From the NCBI GenBank assembly GCA_964496705.1, contig CAZCBJ010000002.1:1488-57664 (forward strand): a DNA stretch of 56,177 bases, written 5' to 3'. The DNA is from an uncultured Anaerolineaceae bacterium. Its GTDB lineage: Bacteria > Chloroflexota > Anaerolineae > Anaerolineales > Anaerolineaceae. Below the pieces are notes generated by a model. It worked only from the letters and a program-made list of their open reading frames with translations, was not told the DNA's origin and made no database searches. How positions within the stretch are numbered: the first letter of the stretch is position 1; each line of letters begins with the position of its first letter. The translations under genes and the position numbers were made by a program. Below, piece by piece: positions 6,953-24,025 of the stretch.

Positions 6953-8788
6953 TTAATCATCCGCAATCCCATTCTTGAACTGCTTGTCATGCAGAGTCTT
7001 ATATAACCCGCCCCTGGCGAGCAACTCGGCGTGGCTGCCCTCTTCGATGATGCGTCCGTCATCGATGACGCAAATGCGGTCGGCGTTCTTGATGGTGCTC
7101 AATCGATGGGCGATGATCACCGCGCTGCGCCCGGTCAGTAAACGCTCAAGGGCTTGCTGGATGAGGGCTTCGCTGACCGTGTCGATGTTGGCTGTGGCTT
7201 CGTCCAGAATCAGGATGCGCGGGTCGGTGAGCACGGCGCGGGCGATGCACACCAACTGGCGCTGACCGAAAGAAAGGTTGGCGGCATTCTCCAGGATGAT
7301 CGTGTCATAGCCTTCTGGCAAGCCGCTGATAAAGTCATGGGCGTTGGCCATGTGGGCGGCTGCCTGCACCTGTTCGTCGCTGGCAGTGGGATCGCCAAAG
7401 CGTATATTTTCGGCGATGGTGCCAGCGAACAGGAACGAATCCTGCGGCACGATGCCCACCTGACGGTGCAGTGAACGTTGGCGCACGCTGCGCACGTTGA
7501 TGTCATCAATCAATACATCGCCTTGAGTGGCCTCGTAAAATCGGCCGATCAGGTTGGCTACGGTGCTTTTGCCAGCGCCGGTGGGGCCGACCAGGGCGAT
7601 ATGCTCGCCGGGCTGGATGAGCAGGTTGACCTCGTGCAGCACCTCAGGCGTATTCTCGCGGTAGCGGAAGGAGACCCGGCGCAGCTCAACCTTGCCGCGG
7701 ATGACCGGCATGTCCACCGCGTCGGGTTGGTCAACCACATCGCTGCGCGTGTCCAATAGTTTGAGCACCTGTTCGCCGCCAGCCATGGCGGACTGCATGG
7801 TGGTGTAAAGCCGGCTCAGTTCCTGGATGGGCTGGAAGAAACGCGAAACGTAGGAGAGGAAGGCTACCAACACACCCACCGTCACGCCGCCGGCAAGCAC
7901 CTCTCGCCCCCCCGTCCACAACACAACCGCGATGGCCAGCATGCTCAGGAATTCAATGGCCGGCAGGAAGATGAACGACAGCGACATGGCGTTGATGTGC
8001 GCGTCACGGTTGGCCTGGTTCACTTTGTTAAAGCGCTCCTGGGTCATATCTTCCTGGGCAAAGGCTTGAATCACACGCACTCCGGCGATATCCTCAGCCA
8101 GATTGCCCACCACCGCAGCCACGCTGGAGCGGGTCTGGCGGAAGGCGTTCTGAGCGCGTTGGGCGAAGAGCACTGTTGCCAGCACCATCAGCGGCAGCAC
8201 CAGCAGCGCGTACAGGGCCAGTTTGGCTGACATGGAAAACATGATGGTGATGATCCCGGCCAGGATAAAAGCATCGCTGATGAAGGTGATCCAGCCCTGC
8301 GAGAGCAGCTCATTGATCACCGCCACATCGTTGATCACCCGCGAGACGGTCACGCCGACAATGTGGGTGTCGTGATAAGAGAGTGACAGCTTTTCGAGGT
8401 GGCGGAAGAGGTCACTGCGCAGAGTGTTCAGCACGCGCTGACCGACGCGCGGGAGCAGGTATTGCTGCCCGGCTGAGGTGACATACAATCCAACGTAGGA
8501 GGCGCCGGTGATCAGGGCGATGCGCAGCAGCCCGGCGGTGTCGCTGGTGGCAATGTACGAGTCGATGATGATTTTCAACAGGTACGGGATGAGCAGCGTC
8601 AGCCCGGTGGCAGCCAGCATGGCCAGGAAGGCGATCATCAACGGGCGCCAGTGCGGTTTGAGATAGACCAGCAGGCGGGAGACGACCTTCCAGTTGAATG
8701 CCTGCCCTTGATGCTCGCCGTCACCGAACTGGTCCAGCAGCGCGCCCGGCCCCATGTGCGGTCCGCCCACCCCGACACCAAAGCTCAT
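6953..8788 (-). CDS. ABC exporter, fused permease/ATPase (type I exporter half-transporter)
   Basis: Six-TM N-terminal domain, Walker A GPTGAGKST, signature LSFGQRQ, Walker B ILILDEATA. ATGA overlap with the upstream partner at 8785-8788. Confidence 0.9.
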   Translation of the reverse strand: MSFGVGVGGPHMGPGALLDQFGDGEHQGQAFNWKVVSRLLVYLKPHWRPLMIAFLAMLAATGLTLLIPYLLKIIIDSYIATSDTAGLLRIALITGASYVGLYVTSAGQQYLLPRVGQRVLNTLRSDLFRHLEKLSLSYHDTHIVGVTVSRVINDVAVINELLSQGWITFISDAFILAGIITIMFSMSAKLALYALLVLPLMVLATVLFAQRAQNAFRQTRSSVAAVVGNLAEDIAGVRVIQAFAQEDMTQERFNKVNQANRDAHINAMSLSFIFLPAIEFLSMLAIAVVLWTGGREVLAGGVTVGVLVAFLSYVSRFFQPIQELSRLYTTMQSAMAGGEQVLKLLDTRSDVVDQPDAVDMPVIRGKVELRRVSFRYRENTPEVLHEVNLLIQPGEHIALVGPTGAGKSTVANLIGRFYEATQGDVLIDDINVRSVRQRSLHRQVGIVPQDSFLFAGTIAENIRFGDPTASDEQVQAAAHMANAHDFISGLPEGYDTIILENAANLSFGQRQLVCIARAVLTDPRILILDEATANIDTVSEALIQQALERLLTGRSAVIIAHRLSTIKNADRICVIDDGRIIEEGSHAELLARGGLYKTLHDKQFKNGIADD

Positions 8789-10599
8789 GGCTGACTGCCT
8801 TTCCCCTGCCTGAGCTGGCGCTGGTAAATATCGGCATACAGGGCAGATGACTGCAGCAATTGAGCATGAGTGCCGCGGGCGCTGATTGAGCCGCGGTCGA
8901 GGACCAGTATGCAGTCGGCGCGCATCACCGTGCTCAAGCGGTGGGCGATGACGAAGGTGGTGCGCCCGGTCATCAGCCGGTCCAACGCCTGTTGGATCAG
9001 TTCCTCGGTTTCCGAGTCCACGCTGGAGGTGGCATCATCCAACACCAGCAGGCGCGGGTTGGTCAGCAGCGCGCGGGCAATGGCGATGCGCTGTTTTTGC
9101 CCGCCCGAAAGGGTGATGCCGCGCTCGCCGACCATCGTATCGTAGCCCTTGGCGGTCTGCATGATGAATTCGTGCGCTTGGGCTGTGCGGGCGGCAGCTT
9201 CGATCTCCTCCTGGCTGGCAGAGCTTGCCCCAAAGGCGATGTTTTCACGGATGCTGGCGGCGAACAGGGTGGTTTCCTGCAGAACGATGCCGATCTGGCT
9301 GCGCAGCGAGTGCAGGGTGGCGCGGCGGATGTCAAAGCCGTCGATGGTGATGCGCCCTTCCGTCGGGTCGTAGAAGCGCGGCAGCAGGTTGATGATGGTG
9401 GATTTTCCTGAGCCGGTCGGACCGACCAGCGCAATGATCTGGCCGGGCAGGGCTTCGAGATGGATGTGCTTGAGCACCTCGCGCCGCCGCCCGTAGGAGA
9501 AGGATACATCCTCAAAGCGGACATGTCCCTCAAATCGGGGCATTTCGATCGCATCGGGAGCTTCCTTCACCTCTGGAATGGTGTCGAGGATTTCAAATAC
9601 GCGTTCAGCGGCCACACTGGCCATGCTGATCGCAGGAATAATCATGCCCAGCAGGCGCACCGGGTTGAGCAGCTGCCCCAGGTAGGTGGTGAAGGCGACC
9701 AGCTCGCCGATGGTCAGCTCACCGCGCATGACCATCATCCCGCCGTAGTACAGGATGAACACCGAAGCCAGGTTGGCAATCAAAGACAGCATCGAGCTGC
9801 CGGTGGCCTGGACGCGGGCGGAGCGGGCGCTCATTTCATACCAGCGTTCGTTTTCACTTTCGAAGCGGGCAATTTCAGCTTCTTCCTGGGCGAAGGCTTT
9901 GACCACCCGCGCTCCGCGCAGGCTCTGTTCCACCCGCGTGGTCAATACGCCGAGTTGCTTTTGGATGGCGGCGCTGAGCGGGCGGAAATGCTTTCCAAAT
10001 TGGATGGCGCGCCAGGCGAGGATGGGCATGGCGGCCACGCCCAGCAGCGCCAGCCGCGGGTTCATCCAGATCAGCACCACGGCGGTGATCAGCATCATCA
10101 CCGTGCTGTCGAGGACGCGGATGGTGGCGCGCCCGGTGAGGAAGCGGATGCGCTCGACATCCTGGATGGCGCGCGAGAGGATGTCGCCCGCCTGGCTGTG
10201 ATCGTGGAAGGAGAAAGAGAGCAGGGTCAGCTTTTTTTGTAATTCACCGCGCAGGTCGGCGGCAACGTTCTGTGAGGCCGTCTCGCTCCAGCGACCCTGA
10301 AAAAAGGTGACCACGCCGCGCAACACGGTCAACCCGAGCAGTCCGATCACGCTCCAATTGAGCAGGCGCAGGTCGGCTTTGCCGATGCCCTGGTCAATGA
10401 TATGGCGGATCAACTGCGGCGTGGCCATGTTGATCAAGGTGACGCACAACATGCACAGGTAGGCACCCAGGGTCAGGTACCAGTAGGGGCGCAGGTAGCT
10501 GTAGCAGCGCATCAAGACGCCCGCCGAGGGGCGTTGAAGCTGTGCGGCCTTTTGTTCAGACGACCGGATCAGATGATCGAGAAAACCGATACGACGCAT
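8785..10599 (-). CDS. ABC exporter, fused permease/ATPase (heterodimer partner)
   Basis: Walker A GPTGSGKST, signature LSGGQKQR, Walker B LLVLDDATS. Translationally coupled to 6953..8788. Confidence 0.9.
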   Translation of the reverse strand: MRRIGFLDHLIRSSEQKAAQLQRPSAGVLMRCYSYLRPYWYLTLGAYLCMLCVTLINMATPQLIRHIIDQGIGKADLRLLNWSVIGLLGLTVLRGVVTFFQGRWSETASQNVAADLRGELQKKLTLLSFSFHDHSQAGDILSRAIQDVERIRFLTGRATIRVLDSTVMMLITAVVLIWMNPRLALLGVAAMPILAWRAIQFGKHFRPLSAAIQKQLGVLTTRVEQSLRGARVVKAFAQEEAEIARFESENERWYEMSARSARVQATGSSMLSLIANLASVFILYYGGMMVMRGELTIGELVAFTTYLGQLLNPVRLLGMIIPAISMASVAAERVFEILDTIPEVKEAPDAIEMPRFEGHVRFEDVSFSYGRRREVLKHIHLEALPGQIIALVGPTGSGKSTIINLLPRFYDPTEGRITIDGFDIRRATLHSLRSQIGIVLQETTLFAASIRENIAFGASSASQEEIEAAARTAQAHEFIMQTAKGYDTMVGERGITLSGGQKQRIAIARALLTNPRLLVLDDATSSVDSETEELIQQALDRLMTGRTTFVIAHRLSTVMRADCILVLDRGSISARGTHAQLLQSSALYADIYQRQLRQGKGSQP

Positions 10600-10705: not shown

Positions 10706-12703
10706 TTAAAAAGATTGTTTTTTCCGCGCGAGCCACACCACCAGAGCCACACCCAGCAAGCTGACCAGCAGGCCGAGGGGGACATCCCACGGGCGGTAGC
10801 GGAACTGGAAGGTGTGGACGCCGGCCGGGGCGGTGACCTGCAGCCAGCGGTTGGGCTGCAGCCGGGTAAAGCGCCCATCCATCCAGCCAACCCACCCGTC
10901 GAACGAGTTTTCCTGGACGGTCAGCAGTCCGTCCTGGCTGGTCTGGCAGAACACGTCAATATGTCCGCCGTTCGCGCTGGCTTTACACGGCACCACCTGA
11001 CCATCGGTGGTGCTGACCGCGGCGTAATGGTTGTCGGGGTATTCGACCACGAACATCCCGTCCACCTCGCCGATATAACCGGGTTGGGTCTGAGATTCTT
11101 CGGTGCGGGTGACCTCGATGACAGGCTTGGGGTAATCGCGGTCTTTCCATACCCACGGGCGGTAGAGATGGGCGATTTTCATCCCGCTGCCCAGCGTGGA
11201 GGGCACCATCAGGTATTCGCCATAGGGCATGCCCACCCATTCAGCGCTTTCAGTTTTCAAAATGTCCACCACTTTTGGCGGCACGCCGTCGATCAAGCCC
11301 ATTAATGTCTGACTGAAGCGGTAAACCGGGGAGATGGATAGGATCAAGGGGATGGCAACCACGAACCAGGCGATGGAAATATGCCAGCCTCCGCCGGTCT
11401 CACTGGTGTAGCCGATTTTTGGCCAGTTCAGTTTGAGCAGCAGATCCGCGCTCCAGGCCGCCAACCCTAATATCAGGGGCACAGCCAGCCCGGCGATGAT
11501 CGGCGCGTTGCGGATATACATCACCTCGGGGATGTAGGTTTGCAGGAACTGCATGAAATCCTTGCTGCTGATCAAATACACCAGGCCGATGGTCAGCAGA
11601 AAGTAAAGCAGCAGCCTGCCCTTTTCGCGCGGCACCAATCGCAGCGCACCCAGCGCCAGTAGAATGGGGATCCAGCCGATGTAATTGATATAAATATAGG
11701 CTGAAATATCGGCGCCGAGCATTTTGGCCCGGTAGATACCGATCTCACGGATCACCAGATTGAGCGGTGAGTATTCCAGGGGCTGCAACTGGCTCAAATA
11801 AGGATCGCTGTCTTTGATCACGTTGGGCAGGAAATTCAGCAACGGCACCCAGAAGATGCCCACCAGCAATGCCGCCAGTCCCAGGGCGAGCAAGAAATCC
11901 TTCCACAGCGCTTTGGGCGAGCGGATATCCTGCAGATAAAATAATGCCAGGCCGGTGAGAAAGCCGCCGAAAAGGCCGATCTGGATATAACCTTGTCCCG
12001 CCAGCAGAGTCAAGGCGATCATCACAGCGGTCCACAGCATAGCGCTGCGCTTGCGGGTCAGGGCCAGCTCCAAAGCGGGGGCCAACACCAGCGAAGCTGA
12101 AGCGGTGGATAGCACCAGCATCAACCCGCCATTTTCCATGCGCCCGGCGAGATGTCCGCCCACCACAGCCAGCGCTGCCGCCCATATGCGCGGCATCCAG
12201 CCCAGGCCCATCACCCGCGCCAGCCACCACTGCGCCAGGCCTGCCATGAACAGGCTGACCACCAGGATGACTTTGGCGCCGTTGACCACCCCCCAGATGA
12301 GCGTGGTCACGATGACCAGCGGGTGCAGCACGGCGCCCTGCAATTCGGCGAAAGCCGGCGCGCCGCCGTTGGTGAAGCCGTTCCACAGGATGCACGTGCC
12401 GCATTTTCCCAGAAGCTGCCAGATATAGTGATACTGGGTGACCATTGGCACTTCATTGCCCAGCGGCAGGCGGTTGGGGTCAAAGTCAAACTGGTTGCGC
12501 CCGACGAACAAAGCCCAGGCGGCGATCAGGGCAACCTCAAACAGGGCGGCATAGGGAATTGTCTTGAAACGTGTCCTCTGGAAGAATCCGCTCAATGCAG
12601 CGCGCAGGCGGGCGAGTGGTTTGCGGGCTTGTTCTCGGGGGGCGCTGGACTCCATTCGATCTCCTCTATTTTTTGGGGTAATCTTAATTCTACACCCGAT
12701 CAA
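10706..12703 (-). CDS. Large polytopic membrane protein with extracytoplasmic C-terminal domain (GT-C/YfhO-like glycosyltransferase is a guess)
   Basis: 665 aa with more than 10 hydrophobic segments, followed by a ~180-aa soluble C-terminus and a final TM. No catalytic motif confidently recognised. Confidence 0.6.
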   Translation of the reverse strand: MIGCRIKITPKNRGDRMESSAPREQARKPLARLRAALSGFFQRTRFKTIPYAALFEVALIAAWALFVGRNQFDFDPNRLPLGNEVPMVTQYHYIWQLLGKCGTCILWNGFTNGGAPAFAELQGAVLHPLVIVTTLIWGVVNGAKVILVVSLFMAGLAQWWLARVMGLGWMPRIWAAALAVVGGHLAGRMENGGLMLVLSTASASLVLAPALELALTRKRSAMLWTAVMIALTLLAGQGYIQIGLFGGFLTGLALFYLQDIRSPKALWKDFLLALGLAALLVGIFWVPLLNFLPNVIKDSDPYLSQLQPLEYSPLNLVIREIGIYRAKMLGADISAYIYINYIGWIPILLALGALRLVPREKGRLLLYFLLTIGLVYLISSKDFMQFLQTYIPEVMYIRNAPIIAGLAVPLILGLAAWSADLLLKLNWPKIGYTSETGGGWHISIAWFVVAIPLILSISPVYRFSQTLMGLIDGVPPKVVDILKTESAEWVGMPYGEYLMVPSTLGSGMKIAHLYRPWVWKDRDYPKPVIEVTRTEESQTQPGYIGEVDGMFVVEYPDNHYAAVSTTDGQVVPCKASANGGHIDVFCQTSQDGLLTVQENSFDGWVGWMDGRFTRLQPNRWLQVTAPAGVHTFQFRYRPWDVPLGLLVSLLGVALVVWLARKKQSF

Positions 12704-12738: not shown

Positions 12739-14331
12739 TTAGAGATATCTCAGCATGTATAAATCCCCCGATGTGAATCCGCGCGCGGCATAATATGTGC
12801 GGGTGCCGATGGCGGCGATGACCGCCAGGCGCTGAAAGCCCTTGGCGCGAGCTATCTCGACCGCCTTATCAATCAGACGCGAGCCCAGTCCGGCGTGCTG
12901 GGCCGCGCCGCTTTGTTCTTCGCCCACCGCCAGCGACTGCCCGAAGACATGCACTTCGCGGATGATCGCCGCGCCGGTCAGCTCTTCCAATCCGAAAGGG
13001 GCGGCGGGATGCTGGGGCAGCGAGAGGCGCAGATAACCGGCAATGCGGTCAGAGGGAGTGACGAAGGAGAGGAAATGCTCTTCGGCGTGGGCGGCGTGAT
13101 AACTGAGATCATCCAGGCACAAATCAGCCGCCGCGACCTTTTCGCCGCGCACCTCACGGCAGCGCACGCAGCGGCAGCGCTGTCCGCGGCGCGCAAGTTC
13201 TGCCAGCACGTCCTGGCGCAGGCTGGTGCGCTTGTTGCCGGCCACCACATGCTGCGAGCCGATGTCGCGGATGACGCGGTTGATCCGGCAGTAAGGCGGG
13301 ATGGACGGCTTGAGGTCGGCGATCAGGCCGATCAACTCATCGGTGGTGTAGGGTTGGTACTCGCCGCGCCGCCAGAAATGGTATAGTTCTGCGCTCTCCA
13401 GTAGCTGGGTGGGATAGATCTTGATCTCATCCGGACAGTAGCCTTCCTGCCACAGGCGGGCGAAATCCTGGCGGTCGGATTCCAGGCTGGCGCCCAGCAG
13501 GTTGGGCATCCAGTGCAGCACGATCTTGAACCCCGCCCGGCGCAGCAGCGCGCAGGCTTGCAGCGTTTCTGCGGCGGTGTGCCCGCGTTTGTTCTGCTCC
13601 AGAATGTGGTCGTTCAGCGACTGCGCGCCCAACTGCACCTTGGTGACTCCCAGGCGGCGCATGCGCACCAGCTCAGCCGGGGTGACCCAATCGGGGCGGG
13701 TTTCAACCACCAGCCCCACGTTGCGGTGCGCTCCGTTCTCGTTGCGCGCCTGGGCTGCTTGCAGCGTGGATGAATCGACCTCGTTCAGCGCATCGAAACA
13801 GCGGCGCATGAACCATTCCTGGTATTCCGGCGAATAAACGCTCCATGTTCCGCCCAAGATGAGCAATTCGATCTTATCGGTGGGATGTCCAACCGCGGCG
13901 TAGGCTTCCAGCCGCGATTTGACCTGCATGTAGGGATCGAAGTTGTTTTGAAAGGCGCGCGCCGCACCCGGTTCATCTTTTAGATAGGATTTGGGCATGC
14001 GCGCTTCAGTGGGACAGAAGACGCATTCGCCCGGGCAGGCGCACGGCCCGGTCAGCACAGTCACGGTGGTCACACCCGAAAGCGTGCGCACCGGCTTCAT
14101 GCGGATGCGCGCGAGCAGAGCGGGGTCAGGCGTCCATTCGCCCGATTCCACCAGCCGGCGGTAGGCTGCCACCAACACGTGCTTGCCCACGTACCCGCCG
14201 CCCGGCAGCGGATGGCGGCGCACGGCTTGGAAGGGATCAACGCCGGCGCGCACCTCCTCCAGCACGCGGCGCGCGGCAGCCAGCATATCGGCGGAATATT
14301 GGCGGGATTTGAGCCATTCGTCAGTATTCAT
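12739..14331 (-). CDS. elp3: Elp3-family radical SAM/GNAT enzyme (tRNA U34 carboxymethyl modification type)
   Basis: 530 aa. Radical-SAM Cys cluster CACPGECVFCP in the N-terminal half. C-terminal GNAT with REVHVFGQS...AQHAGLGSRLIDKAVEIA...AVIAAIGTRTYYAARGF...YMLRYL, which matches the Elp3 C-terminal consensus. Confidence 0.85.
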   Translation of the reverse strand: MNTDEWLKSRQYSADMLAAARRVLEEVRAGVDPFQAVRRHPLPGGGYVGKHVLVAAYRRLVESGEWTPDPALLARIRMKPVRTLSGVTTVTVLTGPCACPGECVFCPTEARMPKSYLKDEPGAARAFQNNFDPYMQVKSRLEAYAAVGHPTDKIELLILGGTWSVYSPEYQEWFMRRCFDALNEVDSSTLQAAQARNENGAHRNVGLVVETRPDWVTPAELVRMRRLGVTKVQLGAQSLNDHILEQNKRGHTAAETLQACALLRRAGFKIVLHWMPNLLGASLESDRQDFARLWQEGYCPDEIKIYPTQLLESAELYHFWRRGEYQPYTTDELIGLIADLKPSIPPYCRINRVIRDIGSQHVVAGNKRTSLRQDVLAELARRGQRCRCVRCREVRGEKVAAADLCLDDLSYHAAHAEEHFLSFVTPSDRIAGYLRLSLPQHPAAPFGLEELTGAAIIREVHVFGQSLAVGEEQSGAAQHAGLGSRLIDKAVEIARAKGFQRLAVIAAIGTRTYYAARGFTSGDLYMLRYL

Positions 14332-14414
14332 AAGATGATTGTGCAGCGCGTAGCTTGAGTTGGGCGGCTTTTGGCCCGGTTCAGGAGATGGTTTTTCAGC
14401 ATGGTTAATTTATA

Positions 14415-15161
14415 ATGGGTTGCATGCGTCCTGAAATTGTCTCAGCGCTTCTTTCCGTTAATAATGAATTCTACCAAACATTCGGCCCGGCGTTCGCAGC
14501 CACCCGGCGGCGCATCCAGCCGGGTGTGCGGCGCATCCTGGACAGCCTGCCAGCCGGCGGGGATTGGCTGGACCTGGGTTGCGGATCGGGGGCGTTGGCG
14601 GTTGAATGGCTCAAAGCAGGGAAGGGCGGCAGGTACACCGGACTGGATTTCAGCCAGCCTTTGCTGACCGAAGCGCGCAGGGCGGCCAGCGGCGCAGGAA
14701 TTGAGTTCCTGGCAGCCGACCTGTCTGCGCCGGATTGGGATGCCCCTCTGGCAGGGCGCAAATTCGATGGGGCGCTGGCTTTTGCGGTGCTGCACCACCT
14801 GCCGGGGGAGGCGCTGCGCCGGCAGGTGGCGGTTAAAGTGCGCAGCTTGTTAAAACCGGGCGGCTGGTTCATCCACTCAGAATGGCAGTTCCAGCATTCG
14901 GCGCGGCTGATGGCGCGCGTCCAGCCCTGGGAGCGCATCGGGCTGCGCGGGGAGGATGTCGAGCCGGGCGACACGCTGCTCGACTGGCGCTTTGCGCTGC
15001 CCGGGCAGAGCGAACAAAGCGGATTGCGCTATGTGCACCTCTTCAACCGCGAGGAGCTGGCCCGGCTGGCAGCCGCAGCAGGATTCACCATTCAGGATGA
15101 ATTTGAATCGGACGGAGAGGGTGGACGGCTGGGTTTGTATCAACGCTGGCGGCGCGAATAA
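14415..15161 (+). CDS. Class I SAM-dependent methyltransferase, Trm9-like
   Basis: Four blocks align by eye with yeast Trm9: FGPAFAATRRRIQPGV (vs IAPHFSQTRYKPWPIV), DLGCGSG, FDGALAFAVLHHLP...LLKPGG (vs FDFAISIAVVHHWS...LRQGG) and LRYVHLFNREELARLAAAAGF (vs YRYYHLYREGELAEDCRQAG). An alternative start is the ATG at 14424. Confidence 0.7.
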   Translation: MGCMRPEIVSALLSVNNEFYQTFGPAFAATRRRIQPGVRRILDSLPAGGDWLDLGCGSGALAVEWLKAGKGGRYTGLDFSQPLLTEARRAASGAGIEFLAADLSAPDWDAPLAGRKFDGALAFAVLHHLPGEALRRQVAVKVRSLLKPGGWFIHSEWQFQHSARLMARVQPWERIGLRGEDVEPGDTLLDWRFALPGQSEQSGLRYVHLFNREELARLAAAAGFTIQDEFESDGEGGRLGLYQRWRRE

Positions 15162-20146: not shown

Positions 20147-23100
20147 CTAGTTGCAGGTGGTCCTGCTCCAGGTGACGGAGCCGTTGGTGACTGATACCTC
20201 CGGCTGCCCCGCTGGTGGTTGGTTGCCGCTGACCATCACGCTCCTGAGCAGCAATGTGCCGCCGTTGAGCGTCGCCAGGATGCCGTGCGCGCCCGAGCCG
20301 CTGATGATGGAACAGCTCAACGTGACCGCAGCAGACGAGCGGTGGGTGATCTCCAGTCCGGCATAACCTGGCGCGGTTGATCCGTTAGCGTACAGGCTGA
20401 CCTTGCTGAGTATGACGGTGTTGTTGGTATCCAGCTTGAGTCCGTTCTTGCCGTTGTTATTGAAACGGTTGGCGCCGAGGGTGGAGAGGATGCTCAGCGT
20501 GCCTGCGCTGGTGCAGGCTGGGTTGGCCAGGCAAGTGTCCAGATTGGCGCCAAAACCGCCGTTGCCGCTGGCAGAGATATTGTTGAGGGTTAGCGCACCG
20601 CGCGCGCGAACTTCCAGGCCGTCGCCGCTGTTGCGGTCAAAGTTACTGGATGAAATGGTCACCGGCTTGCTGAGCGCGGCAGTTTCGTTGCTGAGCACCG
20701 CGCCGGAGAGCAGATTGTCCGAAGCGTTGACCTTGAGCAATGTGATCGCGCCGCTGGAACGGATTTCGAGACCGATGCTGTCCAGGCCGTTGAACTGCCC
20801 ATTCTGGACGCGGATATCGCCGATGCCGTCGGCATTGCTCAGGTAAGCGCCGCCAGTCGGGCTGCCGTCCAGCAGAGTGCCGTTGACAGTCAGGCTGTTG
20901 AGGGTAATCGCGCCTTTGGCAACCGCGTGCAGACCGTAACCGAAATTGTTGTCAAAATGATTTTCGCCCAGAGTATTCAACAGCGTGATCGCGCCGCTGC
21001 CTTCGCAGGGCAATCCGCTGGTCAGGCAGGCGTCCAAATCTGCGCCGCGACCGCTGTTTCCACTGGCGATGATCGCATTGAGGGTGAGATTGCCCTTCGA
21101 GGTGACCGCAAGACCGTCTCCACTGTTGCCGCTGAAGACGCTGCTTGAGATGGAGACCGCGCGCAGCGCGCCGGTGATGGCGCTGTTGTCCAGGCTGGCG
21201 CCGCTGCCGCCCAGGTTCCAGCTGGCCAAAACGCCGCGCAGGGTCAGCGTTCCTTTCGATTCGACCTTGAGCCCGTAGGCTTCGTTGTGATTGAAGCTGG
21301 AACCGCTGATCGTCACCGGGTTCAAAGCATAGTGGTTGGCGATCCAGGCGCCAAAGCCGGTGTTGGCATTCTCACTGGCGGATGTGCCGTTGATGATAAC
21401 AATCCCGCGTGTGTCAATTTTCAGGCCGCTGCCCTTGTTTTGGTCAAAGTTATTTGCGCCCAGCGAGCTGAGCAGGCTGATGTTGCCGCTCCCTGCACAG
21501 ATTCCGCCGCCGGCTGATTGGCAGTTATCCAGCGCTGCGCCGGGTCCGCTGAGGCTGCCGCTGGCGGAGACATGGTTGAGGGTGATGGATCCCTTTGAAT
21601 CCACGCTCAGTCCGCCGGCAAAGTTGCCGTCAAATTCCGACTGGGTGATGGTCACAATGGGAGCGCCGCCCGGATTCAGGTTGTTCAACAACGCGCCGCT
21701 GCCGGTGAGCGATCCGCTGGAGATCACGCGGCTGAGGGTGATGCTGCCCCAGCTGGTCACCACAAGCCCGTCGTTGTTATTCCCTTCGGCGCGCAGGTTG
21801 GCAGCCGTGACTATACTGGGGGCGACGGCATTGTTCAGGTTCACCCCGCCGCCGCCGTTGCCGCTGGCGGTGGTATCCCGCACGGCGAGGTTGCCGCGAC
21901 CGCTGATCACCAAACCGCTGCCGTAGTTGTTGGAGAAGGCGTTGGCGCCCAACGTGCCCAGGACGCTCACCGCCCCCAGGCTGGAGGTGAGCAGCGCGCC
22001 GGTCCCGCCGCTGTTGCCGCTGGCGCTGACATGGTTGAGGCTGACCGCGCCGGCTGCCAGCACCGCCAAGCCGTCGGAAGGTGAACCGCTGGTGTTGCGG
22101 TCAAAGGTGCTGGAGGTGAGGGTGACCAGCCTGGGTTGTGCAGTTGAGGCCGCGTCACCGATGGTTGCGCCGTGCAGATCATTGTCGTTGGCGTTGACCC
22201 GCAGGAGCGCCACCGAACCGCGGCTGTCAATGCCCAGGCCGCGCTGGTCGTTGGCGTTGAATATGCCGTTGGTGATGGAGATATTCCCGACGCCGCCCAC
22301 ATTGTCAATCAGCGCGCCGTTCCCGCTGTTTCGGCTGGCGCTCAGCCCGTTGAGGGTGATCGTGCCGCCGCTGAGGATGGACAATCCATTTTCGGTATTG
22401 CCGGTGAACAAATTGGCGCCTAGCGTGCTGCTCAGCGTGACACCGGCCGTGTAAGCGCAGCGGTTGGTGTCAAAATCCAACATGCAATTCTCGACGAATA
22501 ATCCGTTGGCACCGTTACCGCCGGCGACGAGCGCGTTGAGCGTCACCGACCCGCGCGAAAAGACCTCGATGCCCATGGAGCCATTGTCAGAAGCGATCAG
22601 CGCGGTCAGGCTGACCGGTTGGGCGCTCAGCGCCGGTTGATTGGATACCGAAACGCCGCTGCCAGTTTCGTTGCGGTTGGCCAGAATATTGCGCATCGTC
22701 ACCGCGCCAAGCACATCAACGTACAGACCGAAGCCGGCATTATCATTGAACAGGCTGTTGGTCACCCGGGTGAGTCCAGCTTTCGCGCTGAACAGCACAG
22801 CGCCGTCACCGAAATTGCTGTGCATGCCGTTTTCAGACGCATCCACCCGGTTGAGCGTGATGGCGCCGGAGTTGTCAATTAACAGACCGCTGTCGTTCAG
22901 GTTTCCGCGGAAGACAGCGTTGTCCAGGGTTACAGCACCGCCTCCGATGACCGTTGCCCCGCCCATCCGATTGTTGGAAGCGCTGAGATTCGCCAGGCTG
23001 ACCGGTCCCGGAGTGAGGCCGATGTCAAAAGCTTGCAGTCCATAACCGCTGGCTTCCAGCAGCGGGTTGTTGCCGAGCCCGTTGCGATCAAAGAGACTGT

Positions 23101-24025
23101 TGCGGATGGTCAGGTTGCGCGCGTATTCGATATAGACGCCGTCTGAGCAGCGGTTGTTGCTCACCACCACGTTGTCGAGCTTGACCGCGTTGATGGCGTG
23201 AATTTCCAGACCGTAATCGTCGAAAGCGGAGCAGTTGCCGTTGTTGCCGCTGAAGCTGCTGTTCAGGATGGTGACCGTGCCGCTGCCTGCGGTGACGTCA
23301 ATCAACGCGCCCGAGTAAGCGCCGGTCGCCGTGACGTTGGTGAGGCTGACGCTGCCGGAATGATTTATGATTTCGATGGCAATATTGCCGTCCGGCGGGT
23401 CGACCAGCAGGTCGTTGAGCCGGATCAGACCGCTGTTGCCCTCCGCGTTCACCTGCCCGCCGAGAATGCTGAAATTGCTCAGGGTCACGTTGGCGTTGCT
23501 GATGAAAACGTTGTTCTGCAGGATGGTGTTGTGGGTTTGCTGACCGGAGACGCTGATGGATTTGTGCACATCGAAGCCGGCGGCGTAAGTGCCCGCGGGC
23601 GCCCACACAGTCCACCCGCTCAACACTTTGCCGTCATTGATGGCGTCCTGGATGACGGTGATATTGCCCAGCGTGCAATTCAATCCGGTGCCGCCCAGCC
23701 ACTTGGGCAGCACGCCGGGCGGACAGCCCTGGACATAATTCACCATCTGCGCTTGAACGGCCAGCCCCTGGGCAGAGACTACCGGGTTGCCCTGAACGTC
23801 TACAAGTTGCCCATCCTGCAAATAGGCAGCCTGGGATGAGTCAGCCACCTCGTCGGGAGACTGTCTGGGGGGGCGGGGCTGTTCAGCGGCAGAGCCGCTG
23901 CCGCTGCCGCCCTCAGGAACCGGTGGTGGGGGAGGCTCCGCCAAAACCGGATGGGACAGCCCGGCCAGCATGGCCAGCAGCAGGCTGAAGGTTGCCAGGA
24001 TTTGTATTCGGTGAGTTTGTTTCAT
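20147..24025 (-). CDS. Secreted giant right-handed parallel beta-helix repeat protein (PbH1-type), putative surface/adhesin protein
   Basis: Signal peptide (MKQTHRIQILATFSLLLAMLAGLSHPVLA), then a PPPPP/GSGSGS linker. More than 40 Gly/Asn/Ser-rich ~22-25-aa coils of the form GxGLxVxSxGxITLNxVxASxN follow. No catalytic motif recognised. Confidence 0.85.
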   Translation of the reverse strand: MKQTHRIQILATFSLLLAMLAGLSHPVLAEPPPPPVPEGGSGSGSAAEQPRPPRQSPDEVADSSQAAYLQDGQLVDVQGNPVVSAQGLAVQAQMVNYVQGCPPGVLPKWLGGTGLNCTLGNITVIQDAINDGKVLSGWTVWAPAGTYAAGFDVHKSISVSGQQTHNTILQNNVFISNANVTLSNFSILGGQVNAEGNSGLIRLNDLLVDPPDGNIAIEIINHSGSVSLTNVTATGAYSGALIDVTAGSGTVTILNSSFSGNNGNCSAFDDYGLEIHAINAVKLDNVVVSNNRCSDGVYIEYARNLTIRNSLFDRNGLGNNPLLEASGYGLQAFDIGLTPGPVSLANLSASNNRMGGATVIGGGAVTLDNAVFRGNLNDSGLLIDNSGAITLNRVDASENGMHSNFGDGAVLFSAKAGLTRVTNSLFNDNAGFGLYVDVLGAVTMRNILANRNETGSGVSVSNQPALSAQPVSLTALIASDNGSMGIEVFSRGSVTLNALVAGGNGANGLFVENCMLDFDTNRCAYTAGVTLSSTLGANLFTGNTENGLSILSGGTITLNGLSASRNSGNGALIDNVGGVGNISITNGIFNANDQRGLGIDSRGSVALLRVNANDNDLHGATIGDAASTAQPRLVTLTSSTFDRNTSGSPSDGLAVLAAGAVSLNHVSASGNSGGTGALLTSSLGAVSVLGTLGANAFSNNYGSGLVISGRGNLAVRDTTASGNGGGGVNLNNAVAPSIVTAANLRAEGNNNDGLVVTSWGSITLSRVISSGSLTGSGALLNNLNPGGAPIVTITQSEFDGNFAGGLSVDSKGSITLNHVSASGSLSGPGAALDNCQSAGGGICAGSGNISLLSSLGANNFDQNKGSGLKIDTRGIVIINGTSASENANTGFGAWIANHYALNPVTISGSSFNHNEAYGLKVESKGTLTLRGVLASWNLGGSGASLDNSAITGALRAVSISSSVFSGNSGDGLAVTSKGNLTLNAIIASGNSGRGADLDACLTSGLPCEGSGAITLLNTLGENHFDNNFGYGLHAVAKGAITLNSLTVNGTLLDGSPTGGAYLSNADGIGDIRVQNGQFNGLDSIGLEIRSSGAITLLKVNASDNLLSGAVLSNETAALSKPVTISSSNFDRNSGDGLEVRARGALTLNNISASGNGGFGANLDTCLANPACTSAGTLSILSTLGANRFNNNGKNGLKLDTNNTVILSKVSLYANGSTAPGYAGLEITHRSSAAVTLSCSIISGSGAHGILATLNGGTLLLRSVMVSGNQPPAGQPEVSVTNGSVTWSRTTCN

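Follow-up and report, generated by a model that had tools for sequence, protein, structure and literature searches.

A divergent gene pair for an Elp3 and a Trm9-like methyltransferase

We analyzed a stretch of 56,177 nucleotides (hereafter, the window) from an uncultured Anaerolineaceae bacterium of the phylum Chloroflexota (assembly GCA_964496705.1, contig CAZCBJ010000002.1, positions 1,488 to 57,664 of the forward strand), in which two genes with a putative role in tRNA modification lie back to back. The first, elp3, at 12739-14331 on the (-) strand, encodes a 530-aa protein with radical S-adenosylmethionine (SAM) and GNAT domains, a homolog of the tRNA uridine-34 (U34) carboxymethyl synthase. 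The second, at 14415-15161 on the (+) strand, encodes a class I SAM-dependent methyltransferase of 248 aa that resembles Trm9 and is a candidate tRNA (carboxymethyluridine-34-5-O)-methyltransferase. Between them is a divergent intergenic spacer of 83 bp (14332-14414). A preliminary description of this DNA, made from the letters alone, had given these coordinates, protein sizes, opposite strands, and gap, and the listing of open reading frames (ORFs) agrees with all of them. The ORF of the methyltransferase is indeed 248 aa long, but its true start is probably the second ATG, at 14424, because a database protein that is 100% identical to it (P0001) has 245 aa and because its homologs all start at the equivalent of M4. 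The protein would then have 245 aa and the spacer 92 bp. Our analysis shows that the divergent pairing is conserved in Chloroflexota, and we propose that the two genes are a module for Elongator-type wobble-uridine modification.

The 530-aa protein is unambiguously an Elp3. The hallmarks of this family that were recognized in the preliminary description are borne out by family models, domains, and aligned motifs. Residues 72-529 match positions 51-521 of the TIGR01211 (ELP3) model, and the score of 475.8 bits exceeds the curated cutoff (350). The Pfam domains of the protein are PF04055 (Radical_SAM), PF16199 (Radical_SAM_C), and PF00583 (GNAT). The closest solved structures are the Elp3 of Dehalococcoides mccartyi (DmcElp3; 5l7j, 373.6 bits) and the archaeal Elp3 of M. 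infernus (MinElp3, ~361 bits). The motifs CPGECVFC, CRCVRC, and QHAGLG of the window protein are aligned to CPGKCIYC, CRCIRC, and QHRGLG of DmcElp3; the CxxxCxxC motif stands for the [4Fe-4S] cluster and QHAGLG for acetyl-CoA binding (Q/RxxGxG). The window Elp3 also has ~75 N-terminal residues (1-75) beyond DmcElp3, and this extension is kept among its relatives, whose tblastn alignments begin at residues 1-6. The extended N terminus of archaeal Elp3 is important in tRNA binding (PMC6367351). The extension found here is similar in length to the archaeal one, but does not align to it.

Stand-alone Elp3 had been described as rare in bacteria, and this part of the preliminary description did not hold. 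A query with DmcElp3 gave 7996 proteins at E≤1e-30 among 8000 scored, the best named matches being mostly labeled Dehalococcoidia or Chloroflexota, and a 2026 paper reports Elp3 in "numerous bacteria" (PMC13315578). Such proteins are thus commoner than that description supposed.

The pair persists while its surroundings change

Gene linkage is the strongest evidence for a functional coupling of the methyltransferase to Elp3. A profile scan of metagenomes with a 33-member alignment of the window family (A1) provided 80 loci (L029-L108) with methyltransferases 49-65% identical to the query, 67 of which have sufficient upstream sequence to be evaluated. Elp3 is at most 400 bp from the methyltransferase in 51 of these 67 loci and 0.66-3 kb upstream in a further 5. 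Overall, 56 of the 67 have an upstream Elp3, and it is on the opposite strand in every one of them (56/56). The same divergent arrangement is found at 59% identity to the window methyltransferase (L028, 105 bp from Elp3), at 40% (P0165/L116, 33 bp), and at 32% (P0269/L109, 70 bp). The preliminary description had proposed the conservation of the adjacency as a check on its reading, and this conservation turned out to be strong, reaching down to 32% identity and, as shown below, into the Dehalococcoidia. None of the genes flanking the pair in the window is retained beside it in 87 loci of the methyltransferase family (L022-L108), where the flank matches consist of one phosphodiesterase and five weak ABC-transporter matches. 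Hence, the flanks turn over while the pairing persists: it is the pair that is conserved, not the region.

Starting from the DmcElp3 sequence of the PDB alignment, we located its database entry and those of its relatives and inspected the respective contigs. In D. mccartyi (CP019867.1, L117), a gene for a methyltransferase of 224 aa (7283-7957, (-) strand) lies 43 bp from Elp3 (8001-9380, (+) strand). Methyltransferase genes are also divergent from Elp3 in L118 (7252-7926(-), at 74 bp) and L121 (3191-3841(-), at 159 bp), and L119 has an Elp3 without an adjacent methyltransferase. Since L117, L118, and L121 are mutually syntenic (RuvB-QueH-GNAT...), we count them as one observation. Still, the arrangement is seen again in a second class, where both the flanks and the methyltransferase subfamily are different, and this is independent support for the pairing. 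The coupling of the methyltransferase to Elp3 is thus supported, as gene linkage, in two lineages of Chloroflexota.

Other genes for tRNA modification and SAM metabolism occur near some of these loci. Upstream of the methyltransferase in L117, L118, and L121 are syntenic genes for QueH (epoxyqueuosine reductase, a tRNA modification enzyme) and for a GNAT acetyltransferase. In L120 (1514-5527), a contig labeled by NCBI as Bacteroidota bacterium, genes for SAM synthetase and S-adenosylhomocysteine hydrolase are 2.5-4 kb downstream of Elp3, with two genes intervening; the upstream side is cut off, and the pairing cannot be evaluated there.

Similarity of the methyltransferase to Trm9

The preliminary description had aligned by eye four conserved blocks of the methyltransferase with yeast Trm9. 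All four are present (FAATRRRIQPGV, DLGCGSG, FDGALAFAVLHH...GG, and RYVHLFNREEL), and BLASTP and hhalign confirm their alignment. The yeast reference was NP_013698.1 (P0121; ScTrm9), confirmed by exact look-up. BLASTP matched residues 17-150 of the window protein to 15-138 of ScTrm9 (E 1e-13, 31% identity), and a second segment matched 205-234 to 241-271 (RYVHLF...FESD vs RYYHLY...FERD). When the A1 alignment was compared by hhalign with a 27-member alignment of yeast Trm9 (A2), the match had 98.0% probability (E 1.8e-13, 209 columns) and covered query residues 15-233 and ScTrm9 13-270, i.e., from the N-terminal helix through the C-terminal motif. In YlTrm9, a two-stranded lid is located between beta5 and alphaE (PMC4678810). 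The AlphaFold2 (AF2) model of the window methyltransferase (predicted local distance difference test score, pLDDT, 94.3) has a class I fold with a predicted two-stranded antiparallel lid (186-193 and 201-208) followed by a helix (212-221); this matches the lid topology of Trm9, in a fold that is not unique to Trm9.

The family to which the methyltransferase belongs is large. With a limit of E≤1e-30, a search of a representative library gave 644 clusters (50% identity), the best 150 of which include no outgroup. The members with a named organism are from Chloroflexi, Anaerolineaceae, or Longilinea. Many homologs, not all, carry the JGI pipeline label "tRNA (uracil-5-)-methyltransferase TRM9"; NCBI labels are of generic class I methyltransferases, and some sources use benzoquinol methylase. 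In three members (P0138, P0144, and P0154), an inserted DUF559 domain (Vsr-like endonuclease) separates the SAM-binding half from the lid half. We also considered that the protein could be a CmoM or CmoA, and rejected this identity: there was no NCBIfam match to either at E≤0.01. CmoA/YecO appeared weakly in the PDB search with A1 (21.9 bits).

Conservation of active-site residues

Overall similarity fails to single out Trm9 (see below), so that it is individual residues that provide the specific evidence. The activity of ScTrm9 requires R29, D72, H116, W145, W168, R241, Y243, and N271, with a contribution of H115 (PMC4678810). We established the equivalent positions from BLASTP, hhalign, and MAFFT alignments and counted their residues over 115 sequences, i.e., the window protein and 114 family representatives that are 32-57% identical to it. 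Six of the eight essential residues, as well as H115, are conserved in the family. The equivalent of R29 is R31 (112/115), that of the SAM-binding D72 is D78 (111/115), those of H115 and H116 are H127 (103/115) and H128 (115/115), and that of R241 is R205 (109/115). The base-stacking tryptophans W145 and W168 correspond to W157 (115/115) and W191 (113/115). Within A1, R31, D78, H127/H128, and R205 are invariant. The exceptions are Y243 and N271, for which the window protein has other residues. In addition, the whole family has an insert of ~16 residues (RxQPW) between beta5 and the lid, which Trm9 lacks.

The partner of W168 is ambiguous, since hhalign and the first MAFFT run pair it with W172, which is also near-invariant. 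We favor W191 because of its place in the first lid strand, because of its spacing to R205 (14 residues, vs 13 between W179 and R192 of YlTrm9), and because a three-way alignment matches QDVLVPW, ETLVPW, and GDTLLDW.

The methyltransferases of the Dehalococcoidia are a separate subfamily that is closer to Trm9 than the window protein. On the yeast Trm9 profile they reach 55.2 (D. mccartyi, ~55) and 72.1 bits, and on the A1 profile 47.4 and 69.9 bits; the generic UbiE-like methyltransferase of L119 reached 19.3 bits on one of the two profiles and nothing on the other. VPW and RYY(H/R)L(Y/F) are both present in these partners of Elp3, which means that the position of Y243 is retained. The D. mccartyi protein has VPW, RYYRLY, and a C-terminal RN. 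The latter is a candidate equivalent of N271 in this subfamily, which MAFFT left unaligned to the DN of Trm9. In PDB searches with these proteins, Trm9 is the 6th or 7th match, behind uncharacterized archaeal and bacterial methyltransferases. By these similarities, the Dehalococcoidia proteins bridge the Anaerolineae family and Trm9.

Proposed function and its alternatives

We propose that the two proteins act in sequence on the wobble uridine of tRNA. In the stand-alone Elp3, the radical domain, with [4Fe-4S] and SAM, and the GNAT domain, which binds acetyl-CoA, would together carboxymethylate some tRNAs at C5 of U34, producing 5-carboxymethyluridine (cm5U); we infer this step from orthology to the D. 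mccartyi and archaeal Elp3. The methyltransferase would then bind SAM, hold the carboxylate of cm5U with R31, H127/H128, and R205, as in Trm9, stack the base with W157/W191, and convert it by methyl esterification to 5-methoxycarbonylmethyluridine (mcm5U) at position 34, as suggested by residue conservation and gene linkage. We regard the full scheme as moderately probable, and our confidence is higher for the Elp3 step. The preliminary description had predicted an mcm5U-type modification from the pairing of the two enzymes, and the conserved adjacency, the hhalign match, and the conservation of Trm9 residues all point in this direction. Two of the refuting conditions that it had named, a loss of the adjacency in other Elp3-bearing bacteria and membership in a family unrelated to tRNA, were put to the test here with the linkage data and curated cutoffs, and neither speaks against the idea. 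Chloroflexota with the pair probably make this "eukaryote-type" tRNA modification. A more detailed version can be put forward tentatively, as falling somewhat short of an even chance: that Chloroflexota (Anaerolineae and Dehalococcoidia) have a self-contained two-gene Elp3/Trm9 module for mcm5U-type wobble uridines, in which the Anaerolineae enzyme would be a Trm112-independent variant of Trm9 with a remodeled site of uracil recognition (V in place of Y243, R, N, or D in place of N271, and the RxQPW insert).

A number of observations, in this and the next paragraphs, weigh against the scheme. The window contains no tRNA genes. Elp3 is absent upstream in 11 of the 67 evaluable loci, and two further members of the family, P0021 (67% identity) and P0265 (33% identity), have no adjacent Elp3. 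Trm9 requires Trm112 in vivo in Haloferax, as eukaryotic Trm9 does (PMC6144793); we found no Trm112-like signature in a six-frame scan of the window, no convincing Trm112 homolog beside the Elp3/methyltransferase pairs, and no Trm112 fusions among the long members of the methyltransferase family. Finally, a 2020 review of Elongator states that direct evidence for xcm5U derivatives in bacteria is lacking (PMC7663514).

One candidate for a Trm112 analogue was considered and set aside. In the Dehalococcoidia loci, a conserved zinc-ribbon ORF (CPxC-x18-CxxC, 72-75 aa) is located two or three genes from the methyltransferase (L117 6423-6650(-), L118 6387-6605(-), L121 2691-2909(-)). The proposal is unsupported, as the ORF has no Trm112p Pfam match, and no homolog of it was found in the window or in the Anaerolineae loci.

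The substrate contacts are a further point of concern. At the position of Y243 the window protein has V207, and the family has mostly V, C, I, or A. At that of N271 it has R238, and the family has N in 41, D in 27, and R in 25 of the 115 sequences. The yeast mutants of Y243 and N271 lose ~90-96% of activity (PMC4678810). It could be that the methyltransferase acts with Elp3 on tRNA but that its product is not mcm5U: it could methylate another atom of the side chain or base of cm5U or 5-carbamoylmethyluridine (ncm5U), or a neighboring nucleotide, producing an xcm5U derivative specific to bacteria. This explanation accounts equally well for the linkage to Elp3, and both the changes in residues modeled as substrate contacts in Trm9 and the conserved RxQPW insert speak for it. 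We nevertheless find it unlikely, because the proposed carboxylate-holding and catalytic residues (R29, H116, and R241) and W145 are near-invariant, and because the Dehalococcoidia partners keep Y243 (RYY[HR]L[FY]) and a candidate N271, which argues for the same chemistry.

Overall similarity raises a different possibility, i.e., that the protein is a generic class I methyltransferase acting on a small molecule, a quinone, or some other substrate that has nothing to do with tRNA, and that its proximity to Elp3 is meaningless. Its Pfam matches are solely to generic class I models, and the NCBIfam scan left every model far below its curated cutoff, families unrelated to tRNA included, so that no such family claims it. 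In a phmmer search of the PDB with the window protein, YlTrm9 (5cm2_Z) ranks ~25th (23.7 bits), and in an hmmsearch with A1 it ranks ~10th (35.9 bits), where it is the sole match with an end-to-end alignment. Full-length ScTrm9 scores 44.7 bits on A1, level with the top generic match (3dtn, 43.9). Foldseek with the AF2 model places Trm9 27th amid many lidded class I methyltransferases, with the highest target-normalized TM-score (0.76); the fold comparison does not discriminate it from TylM1, CcbJ, CypM-type, and other lidded methyltransferases. Small-molecule or uncharacterized methyltransferases head both the PDB and the Foldseek matches, and some homologs bear the benzoquinol methylase label. 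A profile of the lid and C-terminal third (A3) had no match in the PDB, Trm9 included, which means that the C-terminal similarity is at the level of motifs only. On the other hand, a chance adjacency is hard to reconcile with a divergent pairing that is kept in 56 of 67 loci, and down to 32% identity, despite complete turnover of the flanks, and that recurs in Dehalococcoidia with a different and more Trm9-like subfamily; the catalytic residues of Trm9 are also conserved. We therefore think that there is little chance of a generic enzyme. The assignment to Trm9 is supported mainly by gene context and putative active-site residues, rather than by overall similarity. The last alternative, that this Elp3 acetylates or alkylates a protein or another RNA, with the methyltransferase in that pathway, fits the lack of observed bacterial xcm5U nucleosides and the very weak in vitro activity of DmcElp3 (PMC7663514) but is very improbable, given that tRNA is the specific trigger for the Elp3 proteins of D. 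mccartyi, archaea, and yeast to hydrolyze acetyl-CoA (PMC6367351), that the window Elp3 has all catalytic motifs and exceeds the TIGR01211 cutoff, and that its partner resembles a tRNA U34 methyltransferase.

The spacer and the neighboring genes

The spacer at 14332-14414 presumably holds the promoters of both genes. In the relatives, the distance between the two start codons is 16-336 bp, with a median of 38 bp (51 loci among L029-L108). Such spacers are insufficient for two conventional leadered promoters, which suggests that the transcripts are leaderless or that the promoters lie within the partner gene. A scan for consensus promoters was uninformative: it had a single weak match in the region, positioned within the methyltransferase ORF. 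A TATAAT at 14410-14415 is compatible with a leaderless start at ATG 14424. A hairpin at 14354-14385(+), with 12 bp followed by a T-run, was discarded, since it does not fold significantly better than shuffled sequences (z -1.85; equaled by 10 of 200 shuffles).

The neighbors in the window encode ABC transporters, a 665-aa membrane protein, MgtC, a phosphodiesterase, and a GDSL lipase, and have no relation to tRNA. The gene of the 665-aa multi-pass membrane protein (10706-12703, (-) strand), which has no Pfam match, follows elp3 on its strand after 35 bp, and the two may be co-transcribed. Further away, at 20147-24025(-), is a gene for a right-handed beta-helix protein of 1292 aa.

Novelty and implications

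The preliminary description was aware of no characterized bacterial module of these two genes. This stands in the searchable literature, where we found no description of a bacterial homolog of Trm9. A 2017 review of Trm112 considered bacterial homologs of Trm112-dependent methyltransferases to be undetectable (PMC5372719), and the methyltransferase beside DmcElp3 is unmentioned in the searchable literature, a coverage outside of which falls the original DmcElp3 paper (PMC5018218). The idea is, on the other hand, not new in kind, given the archaeal precedents discussed below, and stand-alone bacterial Elp3 was already known (PMC6367351, PMC13315578). Hence, the pair adds a bacterial instance to a known pathway and a testable prediction, and does not represent a new type of system or a new chemistry.

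If the proposal is true, a modification regarded as eukaryotic and archaeal is placed in the bacterial domain. The Elp3 of D. mccartyi is the Elongator field's bacterial structural model, and the pair predicts mcm5U as the end product, which tells which nucleoside to seek. It also offers small and probably stand-alone bacterial homologs of Trm9 for structural work on the recognition of cm5U-tRNA. Finally, it bears on the origin of the Elp3/Trm9 pathway, which could be ancestral or have been transferred between archaea and bacteria.

Comparison with known systems

The window methyltransferase shares with the eukaryotic Trm9-Trm112 and ALKBH8-TRMT112 systems (5CM2) the class I fold with a two-stranded lid between beta5 and alphaE, the N-terminal helix with Y..F..TR, the HH after beta4, the W after beta5, the lid strand with [DE]xLxxW, the RYxHL[FY]xxxEL motif, and six of the eight activity-critical residues, as well as its proposed role downstream of Elp3. 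It differs from eukaryotic Trm9 in its low identity (~26-31%), in the Y243->V and N271->R changes, in the ~16-residue RxQPW insert, in its bacterial host, and in that no Trm112 partner was found in the window or beside the pairs.

Archaea share the two-step logic proposed here: their Elp3 stands alone, lacking Elp1/2/4-6, and is accompanied by a Trm9 ortholog. In Haloferax volcanii (HVO_1032), the dependence of mcm5U on Trm9-Trm112 was shown, and a clustering of the Elp3 and Trm9 genes was previously noted in Sulfolobus solfataricus (PMC6144793, PMC5372719). Our contig scan with a single Elp3 query retrieved mostly Elp3 of Methanomicrobiales and distant radical-SAM genes of Clostridia, and in the seven Methanomicrobiales loci that were sampled, no methyltransferase of this kind lies within 4 kb of Elp3.

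Among bacteria, the closest counterpart is DmcElp3 (5L7J), which is of the same enzyme family and phylum and also has a divergent class I methyltransferase adjoining it. DmcElp3, with 459 aa, does not have the N-terminal extension of ~75 residues found in the window Elp3, and its partner, unlike the window methyltransferase, has 224 aa and belongs to another subfamily, nearer to Trm9. A further parallel is CmoM, a bacterial class I methyltransferase that esterifies a carboxymethyl-type side chain of U34, as the methyl ester synthase of 5-methoxycarbonylmethoxyuridine (mcmo5U34). CmoM acts after CmoA/CmoB, not after Elp3. The reaction proposed for the window methyltransferase would be alike in kind, a methyl esterification of a carboxymethyl-type side chain on U34.

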